From an uncultured virus (IMG/VR IMGVR_UViG_2941446319_000001) (lineage: Duplodnaviria > Heunggongvirae > Uroviricota > Caudoviricetes), in IMG/VR virus record IMGVR_UViG_2941446319_000001: a stretch of DNA of 34,747 nucleotides. One strand, 5' to 3'. The notes beneath the pieces are model-generated. The model made no database searches. It saw only the letters and a list, made by a program, of their open reading frames with translations, and was not told the origin of the DNA. The position numbers and the translations under genes are program-made. Positions 2,529 to 28,178 of the stretch are shown here, piece by piece (positions within the stretch are counted from its first letter, which is position 1; the number at the start of each line of letters is the position of its first letter).

Positions 2529-2557
2529 TTCTTCTCCGTCACCCCGGCACAGTTAAG

Positions 2558-2631
2558 CCTCGCTGACTGGGCTCGAACCAGCGTCCACCCGGGCCCAAGA
2601 GCCGGGCGCTCTACCACTGAGCTACAGCGAG
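2558..2631 (-). tRNA. tRNA-like RNA with a non-canonical 9-nt anticodon loop (CTT, Lys-like), no encoded CCA
   Basis: CTCGCTG-TA-GCTC-AGTGGTA-GAGC-G-CCCGG-CTCTTGGGC-CCGGG-TGGAC-GCTGG-TTCGAGC-CCAGT-CAGCGAG-G folds into a full cloverleaf with D and T-loop signatures. Confidence 0.75.
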
Positions 2632-22447: not shown

Positions 22448-23090
22448 CGCCCTCGTCGGCGTCGAGGTTGTCGAGCCAGTCCGCCTCGGACGCGAACTCC
22501 GTGATCACCTTCATGGCGGCGGCGGGGTCTCCGGCGTTGGCCAGCCGGACTGCGCGGCGGATCTCCAGGGCCACCACGTCGATGACCCGGGCGAGATCCC
22601 GGGCCGCCTGTGCGCCGCCCTGGAGCTGGCCACCGAGCAGTTCCACGGCGGCCTTGAGCCGGTCCACCTCGGCCGCAGGCGTGACCATGTCCAGCGCGTT
22701 CACCCACGGGTCGTTGCCGGAGGAGTGCTCGCCGATCACCTCGATCGGGGCAACCGCAGCCGCGAACCTGTCGAGCAGTGCGTGGAAGTTGTCGCGCTCG
22801 TCGATCAGGTTGCCGGTCGCCTGCTCTTCCCGCTCGGCATCGAGGCGGAGGCGCTTGTTCTCGGCCTTGAGGCGGGCCACCTCGCGCTCCCAGTCGCCGA
22901 TAGCCACCCGGTTGAGCCGGTCGTGGGTGACGATCTGAGCGTTGAGGCGATCCACCTCGGCGAGCAGGTCCTTGCGTGCGGATTCCAGGGCCCACACGTC
23001 CGGGTTGTACGGGGCGTCGGCGGAGCAGGAGTCCACGCGGAGGTCCCGGATCTCGGCGAGACGCTGCTCTGGGGTGATCGGCTCAGACAT
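22431..23090 (-). CDS. coiled-coil hypothetical protein
   Basis: DLLAEVDRL and EVARLKAENKRL heptads. Confidence 0.75.
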   Translation of the reverse strand: MSEPITPEQRLAEIRDLRVDSCSADAPYNPDVWALESARKDLLAEVDRLNAQIVTHDRLNRVAIGDWEREVARLKAENKRLRLDAEREEQATGNLIDERDNFHALLDRFAAAVAPIEVIGEHSSGNDPWVNALDMVTPAAEVDRLKAAVELLGGQLQGGAQAARDLARVIDVVALEIRRAVRLANAGDPAAAMKVITEFASEADWLDNLDADEGGEPRG

Positions 23091-23445
23091 CGGCCTGCCC
23101 GCCGTCTTGCTCTGCCTGAGCCGGATTCACGGCGCCGAGGTAGAGGGCCAGCAGATGCCGGGCCACCTCATGCGTGGGCTGTGCGAGCGCCTGCCACATG
23201 ACCCCTTCAGCGGCCTCCAGGCGTGCCTTGAGCTGCTCCACCTCTGCCGGGTCCGGGACGGTCTCACCCTCGACCACGACCGCACAGAAGCGCTCAATCT
23301 GGGAGGGCTTGCCCTTGGGCGTGAACCCGATCCGCAGGACAGCGCCCTCACAGGCCACGTCCACGAAGCCGGCCAACGCCCGGTTCTCGAAGACCTCGCT
23401 GCCGCGCAGGTGCTCGGCGATCCTCTCCGGGGTGATGTCGTTCAT
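23083..23445 (-). CDS. hypothetical protein
   Basis: MNDITPERIAEH...; ATGA overlap. Confidence 0.65.
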   Translation of the reverse strand: MNDITPERIAEHLRGSEVFENRALAGFVDVACEGAVLRIGFTPKGKPSQIERFCAVVVEGETVPDPAEVEQLKARLEAAEGVMWQALAQPTHEVARHLLALYLGAVNPAQAEQDGGQADV

Positions 23446-23639
23446 GCGGAACGCTCCAGGGAGGTGTAGTCGTGGGCGGCCAGCGGGAACATGGCCAGCG
23501 GTGTGGTGCGCGGGGTGGTGAAGTCGTCGAAGAGAGCCGGGCGGATCTTCGCCAGGCACGACCAGCCGGTGTACGAGCCAGCGCAGTGACGGGAAGGGAC
23601 CAGGCCGAGCAGGCGGGCCACCCGATGTAAGGCCGTCAC
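23442..23639 (-). CDS. hypothetical protein
   Basis: GTG start overlapping the upstream stop. Confidence 0.45.
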   Translation of the reverse strand: MTALHRVARLLGLVPSRHCAGSYTGWSCLAKIRPALFDDFTTPRTTPLAMFPLAAHDYTSLERSA

Positions 23640-24040
23640 CGGGACACGCCCTCTCTGGCGTCCTGGTGGTCGTGCAGCTCGCCGAGGCGCTCCAGGTTCG
23701 CGTCCGGGTCCGGCGCCAGGTCCGGGACCGCCGTGAACGATCCCTCCGGCGAGGCGAACCCGTCCCACGACGCCGGGTACGGCTCCCCACGCGGGGTCAC
23801 CGACGCGCCGCCGATCACGTCGCCGCGCATCTTCGCCTGACGCCGGCCGATCGTCTCGTGCAGGTCCGTCATTTCCTCGTCGACGCTGCCGACCTCCGCC
23901 ATGAGCCGGACGCGCTCGGCTCGCAGCAGTTCCAGTTCCTGCTGGTCGCGGTCGTTCAGCTTCCGCAGGCGGGTGATGCCGTTCTCCGTGAGAGTGCGCA
24001 TCTGCTGGGCGTCGGCGATGGTCGTGTACGGCTGAGCCAT
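23636..24040 (-). CDS. coiled-coil hypothetical protein
   Basis: MAQPYTTIADAQQ...; SD AGGAGA. Confidence 0.7.
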   Translation of the reverse strand: MAQPYTTIADAQQMRTLTENGITRLRKLNDRDQQELELLRAERVRLMAEVGSVDEEMTDLHETIGRRQAKMRGDVIGGASVTPRGEPYPASWDGFASPEGSFTAVPDLAPDPDANLERLGELHDHQDAREGVSR

Positions 24041-24110
24041 TGGTGTTCTCCTGAGTCTGGTGTGGTCGGGGAAGGCCCGGCGTGCCCACAAGGGCGGGCA
24101 CGCGGGCGGG

Positions 24111-24668
24111 CTAAGGGGTCAAAGAATCGGAGGGGGTGGCCGACGACTTGCCGTGGCGCGTCAGCAGGTCTTCGAGGTGGTCCAAGCGCTCGGACATCTC
24201 CGCGAAGTCAGTGGAGGTCTCCCGCCTGAGGGTCTTGATCTCGCTCTGGCGCTGCTCGTCGCGCTGCTCCAGGCGGCGGATCATCTGCGAGTGCTGGCGG
24301 AGATTCATCTCCAGCCCGTCCATCCGCTTGCGCTCGTCAGCCGTAAGGGCGGACCTGTTGGCGCTCGCGGCCTTGTCGACGGCCTTGCCGAGCTGGCGGC
24401 GGGACTTCTTGTGGTGGTGGCGGGCGAGCGCTTCGTGCTCGCGGGCCTCGATGACGCGATATCCCTCATTGCGGACGCTGACGACGGTCCTGTGGTCCTC
24501 GATCTCAAGCTGCCGGATGGCCCGGTAGATGGGGCTGCGGTCCTCGCGGAAGTCGCGCTTCAGGATGGCGTCGAGCTTCTCGTAGGTGAGGACCTTGCCG
24601 ACTTCCAGCGCGGCGAGTGCGTCGTACACGAGGACCCACTGGGCCCTGTCGCCCTTGATTTCAAACAT
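24111..24668 (-). CDS. wHTH + coiled-coil protein immediately downstream of the repeat array (putative accessory protein)
   Basis: MFEIKGD...LTYEKLDAIL...IYRAIRQLE...VRNEGYRV is winged-helix-like, followed by a long heptad region; SD GGAG at 24675-24678. Confidence 0.75.
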   Translation of the reverse strand: MFEIKGDRAQWVLVYDALAALEVGKVLTYEKLDAILKRDFREDRSPIYRAIRQLEIEDHRTVVSVRNEGYRVIEAREHEALARHHHKKSRRQLGKAVDKAASANRSALTADERKRMDGLEMNLRQHSQMIRRLEQRDEQRQSEIKTLRRETSTDFAEMSERLDHLEDLLTRHGKSSATPSDSLTP

Positions 24669-24693
24669 GCGAAACTCCAGGTAGAAGTGAAGA

Positions 24694-25885
24694 TCCCTGC
24701 CTTGCCGCGCCCATGGCGGCCTTGGACGGCCCAGCCACGCCTTGCCGCACCCAGATGAGCGGGCGCCGGAGAGTCGAACTCCAGCGATGAGCCGAACGCC
24801 CTGGTGAAACCCCTGCCTTGCCTCTCCCTGCCTTGCCGCGACATGCCGGGCCGAGCCATGCCGTGCTCGTGGGTGGCGCGGAGTCGAACCGCGCAGAAGA
24901 CCGTCCACCCGAATCCATGCCTCGCCAGGCCGTGCCAAGCCCGGCCTGAACCAGCCACGCCTCTGCACGCCCCACCAAGCCGCACACCCAATCGGGGGCG
25001 GTCCAGGGCTGAGGTGCTAGACCCCAACCCCAGACCGTCACCGGCACCACGCCCTGCCCGGCCGAACAAAACCGGACCATGCCCTGGCGCGCCACGCCCT
25101 GCGCCGCCGCACCAAACCGGACCACGCCTTGCCGTGCCGTGCGCTGTTGCTGCCCGGGGGCAGCGGAGGGCCGCGAGACAAGCTCGCGACCGACCGCCGT
25201 CACCGGCCCAAACCTCACCCAGCCCGACCCGGCCAAGCCGTTCCGCGCCCGAGATCGGCACGCCATGCCAAGCCAAGCCCGCTCGGAAGCGGGGGAAGAC
25301 CACGGAGCTAGTCCGTGATCGACCTCCGTCGCCGGAACCTTGCCCGGCCTCGCCACGCCCTGCCTAGCCCGTCCGCGCCCTGCCGAGTCGAGCCGAACCG
25401 AACCCCGAATTGGGGGCGGCGCGGGAGTCGAACCCGCGCTACGACCATTCGCCCACCCACGCCATGCCTTGCCATGCGGTGCCTTGCCCCTGCTTGCCAC
25501 GCCTTGCCCGGCCAAGCCCCAGAGCGCGGGTGCCGAGGGCTCGAACCTCGGAGCCTGCCAGCCACCCTCCAAGCCTTGCCAGACCCCGCCGAGCCCAGCC
25601 ATGCCGCTCCCGGCCCTGCCTTCGGCCCTGCCATGATGCGCGGGCGTCGGGGCCTCGAACCCCGAAGGCTGCCAGTCGCCCTCCATGCCACGCCGAGCCT
25701 TGCCGAACCGAACCACGCCTTGCCATGCCCTACCGGTCCTTGCCGCTCCGAGAGCGCGGATGGCCGGGGAGTCGAACCCCAGCTTGCGACCATCCATCCG
25801 TCCCTGCCCTGTCACGCCTCGCCGGGTCGAGCCCGGCCATGCAGCACCCAGACCGGCCAGGCCAAGCCCAACCACGCCCCGCCTT
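24694..25885 (-). ncRNA. array of ten (GGY-NN)n guide-like RNA units separated by nine hairpins (VIPR-like vrRNA array)
   Basis: 5-nt period with GGC/GGT anchors and variable dinucleotides. Tracts at 25799-25883, 25682-25749, 25568-25632, 25459-25518, 25335-25404, 25207-25281, 25044-25143, 24914-24986, 24810-24867 and 24694-24751. Hairpins lie between them. Confidence 0.88.
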
Positions 25886-25918
25886 GACAGGCTCTGAACA
25901 GTCCGGGAAGTAGGCATG

Positions 25919-26539
25919 TCAGATCTCGCTGACCTCAGTCGAGAACCTGCCGTACATGGTCCGGAAGTCGCCGAGTCCTTCCATCTCGCCGGCCAGGCGG
26001 GCGACCTCGCGGAACTCGTCGTACTCGATCGCCTTCGGGTCGACGATGACGTCCGCCTCGACCAGCCAGTCACGGAAGATCGGGCGGCACCGGTCGACCT
26101 TGTTCCGCTGGACCGTGACCGGGCGGATGTCGACGAACTCGGACTCGCCGCCGCCCCACAGGCCCTCGACGTCGCGCGGCCCCTTGTAGATGAGCGGCAG
26201 CATGAAGTCGGCGATGACCACGCCGCGCTCGATCTTCTTGCCCGCCTTGATCAGCCGCGCCCCGCCGATCAGCGACCGGAACAGGTTCTGGCCGGGCATG
26301 TACGGGCCGAGCTGCGGATCGAAGTACAGGGAGCCTTCGAACTCGACGCGGGCGACCTCAAGGCGGTCCTCGTCGGTCTTGGTCCGCTTGGAGTTGAGCG
26401 CCTTCAGCTTCTTCGCGTACGGGTTGAGCGGGCTCGCAAGCTGCACGTTATGGAGCAGCAGCGGGCGGGTGCCCGTGCAGGTCATGCGGATCTTCAAGGA
26501 CTTGCCCTTCGTTTCGTTGTCCACTTTGTTCGCGAACAT
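25919..26539 (-). CDS. stand-alone RAMP/Cas7-like RNA-binding protein (Vipr-like); alternative start TTG 26497
   Basis: N-terminal strand with TGTRPLLLH, central PYMPGQNLFRSL and C-terminal glycine loop GEMEGLGDFRTMYGRF give a RAMP (RRM) architecture. No other cas genes nearby. Confidence 0.8.
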   Translation of the reverse strand: MFANKVDNETKGKSLKIRMTCTGTRPLLLHNVQLASPLNPYAKKLKALNSKRTKTDEDRLEVARVEFEGSLYFDPQLGPYMPGQNLFRSLIGGARLIKAGKKIERGVVIADFMLPLIYKGPRDVEGLWGGGESEFVDIRPVTVQRNKVDRCRPIFRDWLVEADVIVDPKAIEYDEFREVARLAGEMEGLGDFRTMYGRFSTEVSEI

Positions 26540-26622
26540 TGTTAACGGTAGGAGTATGACCTAGAGGTGTCAACTCTGTTCGCGCTATTCGTTCGCGCAT
26601 ACAGTTGTGAGACCATGCCGTT
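26527..26622. promoter_or_regulatory. promoter of the RAMP cassette and operator repeats
   Basis: Minus TTGACA(26573-26568)-N17-TACCGT(26550-26545)-N5-ATG. Palindrome TGTTCGCGAACA at 26527-26538, plus GTTCGCG copies at 26578 and 26591. Confidence 0.8.
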
Positions 26623-26808
26623 ATGGCCAGAGAGGAAATCCCAGAACTGCGGACGCTGCGTGACGACTACGACCGCGCGCGAGCGGCTCTGTTCGCCGGC
26701 ATCCGCAAGTACCTGGCCGAAGGGCGAGGCCCATCCGAAATCGGCCGTAGCGTCGACTGGACCCGCGAGTACATCGCGAAGATCCGCGACGGCAAGGTCA
26801 AGGACTAG
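26623..26808 (+). CDS. small HTH repressor divergent from the RAMP gene
   Basis: GRGPSEIGRSVDWTREYIAKIRDG HTH. Confidence 0.75.
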   Translation: MAREEIPELRTLRDDYDRARAALFAGIRKYLAEGRGPSEIGRSVDWTREYIAKIRDGKVKD

Positions 26809-26906
26809 CGCCACCTGGCTCTCCTCCTCTCGGATGTATGGGGTACTGGGTAGGTCCCGTCGCTGTCCCGACCCCCGATGGACGGGACAGCGACGGGAGA
26901 GGCGGG

Positions 26907-27311
26907 CTAGAAGGGCGCTTCCGGGTCGATCTCCAGCCACGGCTGCAACACGTGGAGGCGGTAGAAGACCTTGCAGCCCGGCGTCTTGTCGGCGTGGTCG
27001 AGGGCCTTAGACGCTGACTGGAAGGGGATGATGAGCCCCGCCTTGTCCGGGTGGCCGCTGGCGACCACGATCTCCATGCGGGTCTCCAGCGCCTCGAACT
27101 CGGCGATCCGCTCGCGGGCCTCGCGAAGCTCCGTCGCCATGCGGGAGACGACCGTCACCAGTTCCTCGGCCGCTTTGCCGCTGTCGTCGTCGCTGCCGCC
27201 GTAGTAGACGCGGATCGACTCCTCTACCGCGTCCAGGTCTAGCGGCGGTTCCTGCTCGGGCTCGTCGGGCTCTCGGTCGTTGGCCTCGTACAGGTCGTCT
27301 ACGTGGGTCAC
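26907..27311 (-). CDS. hypothetical protein
   Basis: Acidic N-terminus, central coiled coil, C-terminal PF. Confidence 0.7.
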   Translation of the reverse strand: MTHVDDLYEANDREPDEPEQEPPLDLDAVEESIRVYYGGSDDDSGKAAEELVTVVSRMATELREARERIAEFEALETRMEIVVASGHPDKAGLIIPFQSASKALDHADKTPGCKVFYRLHVLQPWLEIDPEAPF

Positions 27312-27330
27312 GGTCGTTCCCTTCAGGGGG

Positions 27331-27531
27331 TCAGGGGGTTTCGATGTCAGATGGGGAGCCGTACCGGGCGAGATCGGCCGTCATCGCGGCGATGCACGCG
27401 AGGCAGGCTCCGCACGGCGTCTCGTCCGGCTGGCGCTTGGTGCATCCGACCGCGCCGGCCGAGCAGTCGTGGTCTACGGGGAGCCAGGCGTCACACCAGT
27501 CGCAGTAGCGCATGTCCTCGACGACGCTCAC
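27331..27531 (-). CDS. small Cys-rich protein
   Basis: YCDWCDAW...CGACLAC; GTGA overlap. Confidence 0.55.
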   Translation of the reverse strand: MSVVEDMRYCDWCDAWLPVDHDCSAGAVGCTKRQPDETPCGACLACIAAMTADLARYGSPSDIETP

Positions 27532-28178
27532 GACGCCGTCACCTCGATCAGCCAGAACGGCGACGAGCCGCAGGAGCACGTGTAAGGGCCTTCGGCGGGA
27601 GTCGGGCGGCCGGGGCACTGGGCGTGCCCGTACCGCTCCACCGCCTCAGCGAAGGCAGCGCCGGCCACCACCGGGATGGGGCGTTTGCCGTCCTGGTGCG
27701 ACCCCTCAGGGGCGGGCCGGAACCCGCCCCTGTCGTCCAGCAGCACCCAGCCCAGACGGGCGTGCTTGACCGGCACCTCCCACGGACGGGCAACGCCCTC
27801 GCGCAGCTTGTAGCCGAGCCGCTCCGCCGCAGCGGGCGCCACCGCATCCGTGAGCCTGTGGCACGGCCGGCACGCCCACTGGACGTTCGACGGCGCGTTC
27901 GACCACCGCTTCGACGTGCCGCCGATCTTCTTCCCCTCGCGGTGCGCCGAGTCCGTCCCAGCCGCCGCGCCGCGGCACGCCAGGCCGATCTCACACAGGC
28001 CCTCCGAGCGGCGGCGGATGATGTCCCGCACCCTCGCCGGGACACCCTTGGGCGCCGACTGCTTCAGCGTGGACGTCCGCTTCTTCGGGTCGTTGGCCCG
28101 CTTGAAGCCGGCACCGCGAGACATCTCCGTCTTCGCCTTCAGCGGCGTCTTCCGCTGCGGCATCGGCGACCTCTTCAT
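27528..28178 (-). CDS. HNH-like endonuclease
   Basis: RSEGLCEIGLAC...AHR...SNVQWACRPCH. Confidence 0.8.
   Translation of the reverse strand: MKRSPMPQRKTPLKAKTEMSRGAGFKRANDPKKRTSTLKQSAPKGVPARVRDIIRRRSEGLCEIGLACRGAAAGTDSAHREGKKIGGTSKRWSNAPSNVQWACRPCHRLTDAVAPAAAERLGYKLREGVARPWEVPVKHARLGWVLLDDRGGFRPAPEGSHQDGKRPIPVVAGAAFAEAVERYGHAQCPGRPTPAEGPYTCSCGSSPFWLIEVTAS

Follow-up and report, generated by a model that had tools for sequence, protein, structure and literature searches.

What does a kilobase-scale stretch of five-base-periodic DNA in a prophage-like region encode, and at what is it aimed? We addressed this question for an array of ten GGY/NN tracts in a stretch of 34,747 nucleotides (referred to as the window; IMG/VR record IMGVR_UViG_2941446319_000001, an uncultured virus of the Caudoviricetes). 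The window is a prophage-like part of a 10.7 Mb genome with 68% GC, referred to as the own genome. Particular attention was paid to the fifth tract, guide 5. A sequence-only reading of this tract had proposed that its variable dinucleotides spell RSTLYRAL, a motif of the C-terminal helix-turn-helix (HTH) of serine resolvases and invertases, and that the gene of a transposon or plasmid recombinase is targeted.

A ten-unit GGY/NN array in a prophage-like region

All likely genes of the window lie on the minus strand and have the look of a phage early or replication region, with genes for WhiB, a primase/helicase, a replication initiator, a C5 methyltransferase, a Sak4-like ATPase and an HNH endonuclease. 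A tRNA gene is located at window positions 2557-2631 (minus strand; Rfam, 58.5 bits), to which ARAGORN assigns a four-base 'anticodon', cttg, and no amino acid; it may mark the prophage border or represent a phage tRNA with an enlarged anticodon loop.

The array (Table 1) was delimited by its periodicity. Identity between bases is 0.417 at a lag of 5, 0.402 at a lag of 10 and 0.402 at a lag of 15, compared with 0.273 at a lag of 5 in neighbouring coding DNA. A scan of the whole 10.7 Mb for 5-base periodicity flagged 10 regions; the array accounts for 1,200 bp and the other nine for 200-450 bp each, the array being the sole kb-scale 5-periodic region of the genome. Six of the nine were inspected, and no second kb-scale GGY/NN array was found among them; among them are tandem or iteron-like repeats between genes and a stretch of coding DNA whose repeat unit is 15 bases long. 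Two regions, G000:C8:76200-76440 and G000:C12:342100-342500, are intergenic with 5- or 10-base periodicity, and in one of them the minus strand carries a perfect (GGCGA)n run. No Rfam family scored at gathering level within the array. A protein-coding array was also considered, as a 470-codon open reading frame (ORF; 24661-26073, minus strand) spans it, and was rejected: the translation is rich in W, R and G, and the periodicity is of five bases, not three.

Each vrRNA unit consists of a GGY/NN tract of about 10-18 pentamers followed by a structured tail, with the exception of tract 10. This last tract (24669-24751, minus strand) is without a tail and continues directly into the vap-like gene described below, at its ribosome-binding site and start codon, an arrangement also present in five related contigs (L174-L178), which suggests that the last tract doubles as the leader of that gene.

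Guide 5 is written on the plus strand as NN followed by GCC (variants ACC, TCC and GTC) and on the minus strand as GGY followed by NN. Automatic phase segmentation returned the same boundaries as the sequence-only reading, 14 pentamers with a perfect GGY on the minus strand in 12. The plus-strand dinucleotides, GA TT CG TC AC CT TA CG GC CT GA GA GA GA, are exactly those given in that reading. Taken as codon positions 1 and 2 they yield [DE][FL]RSTL[Y/stop]RAL[DE]x4, the Y of the proposed peptide being one of the two readings of TA.

Table 1. Features of the locus, in window coordinates.
Feature	Position	Strand	Remarks
vipr gene (P0002, 206 aa, RAMP-like guide-binding protein)	25919..26539	minus	directly upstream of array
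Array of ten vrRNA units	24669..25918	minus	5-base periodicity, phase segmentation; non-coding, 1.25 kb
tRNA-like tail (one of units 1-4, 8, 9)	25752-25804	minus	TTCGANN-loop hairpin, aligned stretch
tRNA-like tail (one of units 1-4, 8, 9)	25635-25687	minus	TTCGANN-loop hairpin, aligned stretch
tRNA-like tail (one of units 1-4, 8, 9)	25521-25573	minus	TTCGANN-loop hairpin, aligned stretch
tRNA-like tail (one of units 1-4, 8, 9)	25408-25460	minus	TTCGANN-loop hairpin, aligned stretch
Guide 5 tract	25335..25404	minus	14 in-phase pentamers; fifth of ten tracts in array
Guide 5, twelve 5'-proximal pentamers	25345..25404	minus	every NN matches the resolvase target
Guide 5, last two pentamers	25335..25344	minus	NN = AA, TC; target matched at 1/4 bases
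Tail of guide 5	25280..25334	minus	two-hairpin type, not T-arm type; aligns with unit 6 tail and one L174 unit
tRNA-like tail (one of units 1-4, 8, 9)	24864-24916	minus	TTCGANN-loop hairpin, aligned stretch
tRNA-like tail (one of units 1-4, 8, 9)	24754-24806	minus	TTCGANN-loop hairpin, aligned stretch
Candidate accessory gene, vap1-like (P0003, 185 aa)	24111..24668	minus	follows array; phrog_5926

The array adjoins a vipr gene

The protein encoded directly upstream of the array, P0002, was compared with PDB sequences using phmmer. It matched a single solved structure, 36pp_D, 'SUSP1 Vipr protein', with an E-value of 5.2e-34 over residues 18-203. P0002 also matches phrog_4652 (E 2e-51) and is about 40% identical to Felixounavirus homologues in tblastn searches. 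The main text of the cryo-EM paper (10.64898/2026.04.26.720927) names the SUSP1 Vipr residues that hold G1, G2 and Y3 and that touch DNA. The named residues H17, K33, R39, R138, D177, W178 and R179 correspond in P0002 to H30, K46, R52, R152, D191, F192 and R193: six of the seven are identical, and the seventh is an aromatic swap of W for F.

As ten GGY/NN tracts lie directly downstream of a gene matching SUSP1 Vipr, the locus is a VIPR system, and it resembles type II VIPR; its expression, vrRNA binding and silencing activity would be expected by analogy. Three earlier readings of the array, as a TRAP-like protein-binding RNA, as an R-loop or G-quadruplex origin and as iterons for the downstream protein, were dropped and replaced when the PDB match to Vipr was obtained.

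The 185-aa protein encoded after the array, P0003, has no Pfam family. In Escherichia phage wV8, the gene that follows vipr encodes a protein to which P0003 is weakly similar (BLASTP, E 1e-5, 29% identity over 72 aa). Homologues of P0003 adjoin tracts in four other loci (L057, L059, L114 and L034). On these grounds we regard it as a candidate vap1-like gene.

Six viral contigs (L174-L178 and L182) have the same order of vipr, guide array and 185-aa gene, and the identity of their Vipr proteins to P0002 ranges from 39 to 80%. These relatives came from an alignment-based query; a single-protein query found no relative. In three further IMG/VR contigs (L179, L180 and L181) the Vipr homologues are 45-46% identical and the vap-like gene follows directly with no array between, and the guides of these contigs must lie elsewhere or differ in form. 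A scan of IMG/VR for six in-phase GGC pentamers gave at least 139 loci. Among the 139 listed, 123 contain 5-periodic tracts, over a GC range of 36-73%; 33 encode a homologue of P0002 on the same strand as the tracts, in most cases with its end shortly before them; this count includes several overlapping pieces of one contig, and long flanks were available for only 80 loci. Tracts of the GGC type occur in phages at very different GC contents, as in L025 (IMG/VR, 58% GC), L059 (42% GC) and L086. A RuvC-like gene marks the end of the tracts in L025, whose spacer hairpin is of another kind, and a RusA-like gene that of the long tracts in L086; L059 has single tracts to either side of a vap-like gene.

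At the nucleotide level, megablast of window positions 23000-28000 against phages gave no match, and a BLAST comparison of the array with 110 host-genus genomes gave only short spurious matches, one of them to a PKS coding repeat. A literature search for pentanucleotide GGC repeats in bacteriophages returned nothing relevant.

Guide 5 matches a serine recombinase gene in the own genome

VIPR was described in 2026 preprints and worked out in E. coli and Pseudomonas phages. According to the main text of the first (10.64898/2026.04.26.720920), vrRNAs consist of 9-16 tandem GGY/NN pentamers, Vipr protomers bind the GGY of each pentamer, and the NN pair with double-stranded DNA with every third target base skipped (the 1-nt skip rule), and the base left out is usually a codon wobble position. 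Either strand can be targeted, no PAM is used, natural targets are called at a gapless NN match of at least 80%, and competing phages or satellites are silenced at the level of transcription (10.64898/2026.04.26.720920). The filament and R-loop build from the 3' end, as described in the main text of the cryo-EM paper (10.64898/2026.04.26.720927). SUSP1 vrRNA4 targets the serine recombinase of a satellite at codon-determining positions (10.64898/2026.10.15.759431, main text), and several guides of a published array often converge on one element.

Each of the ten guides was read by the 1-nt skip rule and compared with both strands of the whole own genome. Guide 5 has one outstanding site, G000:C24:73366-73406, with 25 of 28 read bases and 12 of 14 NN matched. 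The mismatches are confined to one end: the twelve 5'-proximal NN match at all 24 read bases (G000:C24:73372-73406), and the two tail-proximal NN match at one base of four. The site lies in frame, the skipped bases being third codon (wobble) positions of LGVG RSTLYRALEDDE, and the residues it specifies, VG-RSTLYRALEDDE, fall within a serine recombinase's HTH_7 domain.

The gapped match of guide 5 exceeds chance. When the order of the dinucleotides was shuffled 150 times, the best scores were 20 (20 times), 21 (104 times) and 22 (26 times), and none reached 23; mean site counts dropped about ninefold per extra match, to 0.19 at a score of 22. On contig C24 alone, none of 100 shuffles reached the score of guide 5. 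Natural guides served as a further control: 26 guides from related arrays of other phages matched the own genome at 65-83%, and the nine sister guides at 68-86%, inside their shuffled ranges. None of these nine has a significant match in the own genome (best 19/22 for unit 10 and 17/20 for unit 9), and none stands out against contig C24. That only one guide of ten matches the own genome or contig C24 counts against the reading of guide 5 given below. As the filament builds from the 3' end, the mismatched tail-proximal NN could likewise matter and weigh against it.

Several observations bear on these two NN. NN 13-14 were matched by no target locus found. Several units, here and in related arrays, have similar pentamers at the ends of their tracts, just before the tail, and the final pentamer of guide 5 falls, in the alignment, at the beginning of a conserved tail that unit 6 and the L174 unit also have. 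These similarities suggest that units 13-14 belong to a constant region and that the programmable part would be the 12 matching units.

The target lies beside a tni module

The target ORF (C24:72427-73641) matches PF00239 (Resolvase) at residues 140-279 (E 4.1e-30) and PF02796 (HTH_7) at residues 282-325 (E 1.2e-9); judged by these domains, the target gene is a small serine recombinase gene of the resolvase/invertase kind. The footprint of guide 5 covers codons 314-327, the recognition-helix end of the HTH. This is late in the ORF of 404 codons, a point against the reading of guide 5 given below; the true start of the ORF is probably internal.

The resolvase gene is located about 5 kb downstream of a tniA-like/tniB/tniQ module, with TniA-like (Mu-transpos_C, rve), TniB and TniQ encoded 5-9 kb upstream of the target. 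A transposon of the Tn5053/Tn402 (tni) type carries tniA, tniB, tniQ and a resolvase gene between defined ends, and the present context is a candidate for one. Genes for a NACHT NTPase, a second resolvase and a membrane protein lie between the tni genes and the target, and genes for a HEAT-repeat protein and a 2802-aa RHS-repeat protein lie downstream. A conflict-type gene island thus adjoins the tni module around the targeted resolvase; the flanking NACHT/STAND NTPase gene is at G000:C24:68490-70628 and the RHS-repeat gene at 74386-82794.

These results support the interpretation put forward in the sequence-only reading. That reading would have failed had there been no in-frame recombinase or HTH match above background, and the opposite was found: an in-frame match within HTH_7 of a Resolvase-domain protein on contig C24, at 25/28 against a shuffle maximum of 22. 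The 14-unit motif held for 12 units and failed for its first two residues, [ED][LF], where the target has V-G. As to the source of the recombinase, the tniA/tniB/tniQ context backs a transposon; a plasmid is not backed, the closest plasmid recombinases being at most 52% identical.

We consider it likely, at a probability of roughly 0.8, that guide 5 is vrRNA 5 of a prophage VIPR, programmed against the resolvase HTH-helix segment RSTLYRALEDDE, and that its binding blocks transcription of the recombinase. This reading builds on the observed Vipr homology, array anatomy, gapped in-frame match with its statistics and identity of the target gene. The minus strand of the array would be transcribed and cut into units, and Vipr would polymerise on vrRNA 5, one GGY per protomer, presenting the NN. 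The complex would then pair with the double-stranded resolvase gene, on the coding strand, over 12 codons with every third base skipped, and the bound filament would keep the resolvase from being transcribed and so put a rival mobile element out of action. The steps of expression, assembly of the filament, binding to DNA and silencing are modelled here on the E. coli systems of the cited papers. As the skipped bases fall on wobble positions, guide 5 would tolerate synonymous drift, and as its NN are complementary to the sense strand, the resolvase mRNA would also be complementary to the guide.

Distribution of the target site

At up to three mismatches, the 14-unit pattern was found in five of the 110 host-genus genomes, the own genome included, and the reversed-pattern control in none of the 110. 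The exact 12-NN pattern occurs at five loci in 185,579 species genomes (one genome per species), all in Streptosporangiaceae resolvase-like ORFs (three Nonomuraea and two Sphaerisporangium records); two of these five loci share a 41-base site with two of the genus matches and are apparently the same places. The exact pattern was found neither in IMG/VR nor in JGI metagenome contigs. In all ten sites fetched the encoded peptide is [VID][GV]RSTLYRALE and then three residues that are acidic or amides, and the ORFs at the homologous sites in relatives are all resolvase-like. Both Resolvase and HTH_7 were present in each of the five site-bearing ORFs scanned (L164 and L170-L173), a set that leaves out the ORF of L165 and the contig-end fragment L169; L166 and L167 duplicate L171 and L172, and L168 is the own-genome site. 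The neighbourhoods of the homologous resolvases in relatives are unrelated and differ between genomes, so that they single out no one mobile element as the one being fought, which counts against the reading. No close relative of the target protein emerged from tblastn searches, in which identity peaked at 51.9% among plasmids and at 46.3% among phages.

It is also conceivable that guide 5 is a true VIPR guide whose cognate prey is the resolvase of an unseen element matching units 13-14 as well, the C24 copy being a near-cognate bystander. The last two NN, matched by no locus found, fit such prey, as do the best site in the genus, which matches 26/28 with mismatches different from those of the C24 site, and the varied contexts of the resolvase family. 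Against it, the 12/14 NN matched on C24 exceed the 80% criterion given in the main text of the preprint (10.64898/2026.04.26.720920), neither IMG/VR nor the JGI metagenomes contain the exact 12-NN pattern, identity to the target protein does not rise above 52% for plasmid recombinases or 46% for phage recombinases, and the terminal pentamers look constant across units. We regard an unseen cognate prey as unlikely, at something like one chance in seven set against the C24 resolvase as the programmed target.

Guide tails of two types

Six of the nine tailed units (units 1-4, 8 and 9) end in a tail in which a short acceptor-like stem encloses a T-arm-like hairpin with the loop TTCGANN. Hairpin and stem together look like the T-arm of a tRNA stacked on its acceptor stem. 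We aligned 22 tails of this type from the window and six viral contigs. In the alignment 88% of cells are paired, compared with 70% after shuffling (none of 500 shuffles came as high), compensatory changes on both sides occur in 44 cells compared with 12 in shuffles, and slid controls pair at 45-57%. The T-like helix alone is 96% paired, with compensatory changes in five of its six pairs. The tail of guide 5 is of the minority, two-hairpin type, which counts against the reading; the consensus of this type has 21 pairs, eight with compensatory changes, in an alignment of three sequences only. Both types are thus backed by covariation, and their folds are unlike the SUSP1 pseudoknot.

The tails were also considered as tRNA genes or pseudogenes, and this was rejected: no Rfam family matched at gathering level, the best being tRNA-Sec with 20.9 bits (E 0.34; threshold 47). 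ARAGORN reports a 92-nt 'tRNA-Ala (ggc)' at 24869-24960 (minus strand), which is the end of guide tract 8 plus its tail, and automatic annotation may mislabel such units as tRNAs. There is no mention of tRNA in the main texts of the three VIPR preprints (10.64898/2026.04.26.720920, 10.64898/2026.04.26.720927, 10.64898/2026.10.15.759431) or in one supplement.

The tails bear on a further possibility, that the match is real and unit 5 is decayed or silent, neither processed nor loaded, such that nothing is silenced. Its tail indeed lacks the T-arm-like hairpin present in six of the nine tailed units, and two of its pentamers deviate from GGY. However, unit 6 and a related array retain the same tail type with compensatory changes (three sequences only), 12 of 14 pentamers are perfect GGY, and a perfect 24-base gapped match would hardly have been kept without selection. 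A silent unit is therefore very improbable in our estimate. Chance resemblance (any dinucleotide run reads as some peptide, RSTLYRAL is a common motif, one reading was picked from ten guides in two orientations, and the (GAx)4 part is of low complexity) has a negligible probability in view of the DNA-level test, with a single 25/28 site in 10.7 Mb, a shuffle maximum of 22 in 150 trials, natural control guides at 83% or below, and zero exact matches in the viral and metagenome collections.

Discussion

In this locus a guide and its natural target form a clean pair, both found within a single genome of a distant host with high GC. The pair lends support to the view that the two-read, one-skip code is general, and likewise the strategy of targeting invariant codon positions of a rival's recombinase. 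The tRNA-like tails are a testable variant of array architecture, and the pair as a whole raises the question of whether a prophage can silence a transposon-associated resolvase.

A bolder picture can be drawn, to which we give well under even odds: an actinobacterial ten-guide VIPR with tRNA acceptor/T-arm mimics, in which host tRNA-processing enzymes might cut or cap the guides and in which one guide might immobilise a resident tni-type transposon or island by silencing its resolvase. If true, VIPR conflict would widen from phage against phage or satellite to phage against transposon, and guides would be cut or capped without a ribozyme or dedicated nuclease.

The closest known systems are the type II VIPR of SUSP1 and of a Pseudomonas fulva prophage. 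As far as the main texts describe them (10.64898/2026.04.26.720920, 10.64898/2026.04.26.720927), they share with the present locus a Vipr with conserved GGY-binding residues, GGY/NN guides of similar length, a structured 3' tail, a small vap1-like gene, here a candidate, a prophage location, and a natural target read under the 1-nt skip rule with the wobble position skipped. They differ in several respects. The host here is a high-GC actinobacterium; GGC dominates here in place of GGT; the SUSP1 tail described in those texts is a pseudoknot, whereas the tails here are tRNA-like or two-hairpin. In wV8, GGT-type tracts flank both sides of vipr-vap, whereas here the order is vipr, ten guides and then the candidate vap.

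The nearest parallel to the target is SUSP1 vrRNA4 and the excision recombinase of the F5 satellite (10.64898/2026.10.15.759431). In both cases the guide reads the most constrained, codon-determining positions of a rival's serine recombinase. The vrRNA4 footprint, however, extends over 18 bp (six units) within the catalytic core of a 506-aa phage-satellite recombinase; guide 5 reads 12 units of the sequence for the HTH recognition helix in a small protein of the resolvase/invertase type, encoded next to tniABQ genes, with no satellite identified.

Class 1 CRISPR-Cas, in which Cas7 assembles on crRNA, is a more distant likeness: in both, RAMP-fold protomers bind the guide periodically and pairing is interrupted at fixed intervals, as noted in the main texts (10.64898/2026.04.26.720920, 10.64898/2026.04.26.720927). 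Unlike Class 1 CRISPR-Cas, VIPR has no repeat-spacer array, adaptation genes or PAM, and it reads two of five bases on the guide and two of three on the target, compared with five of six in Class 1 CRISPR-Cas.

The hammerhead-interspersed vrRNA arrays described in the main text of the first preprint (10.64898/2026.04.26.720920) resemble the present array in placing a self-contained processing or structural module between guides. Unlike theirs, the module here is a look-alike of the tRNA acceptor and T-arm, and its cleavage by tRNA enzymes is hypothetical. The tRNA-punctuated guide arrays used in engineering likewise have a module between successive guides. The kind of system found here is known; what is new is a member in a distant host, its target and, as details, the tRNA-like tails, whose novelty is relative to the VIPR main texts and one supplement.
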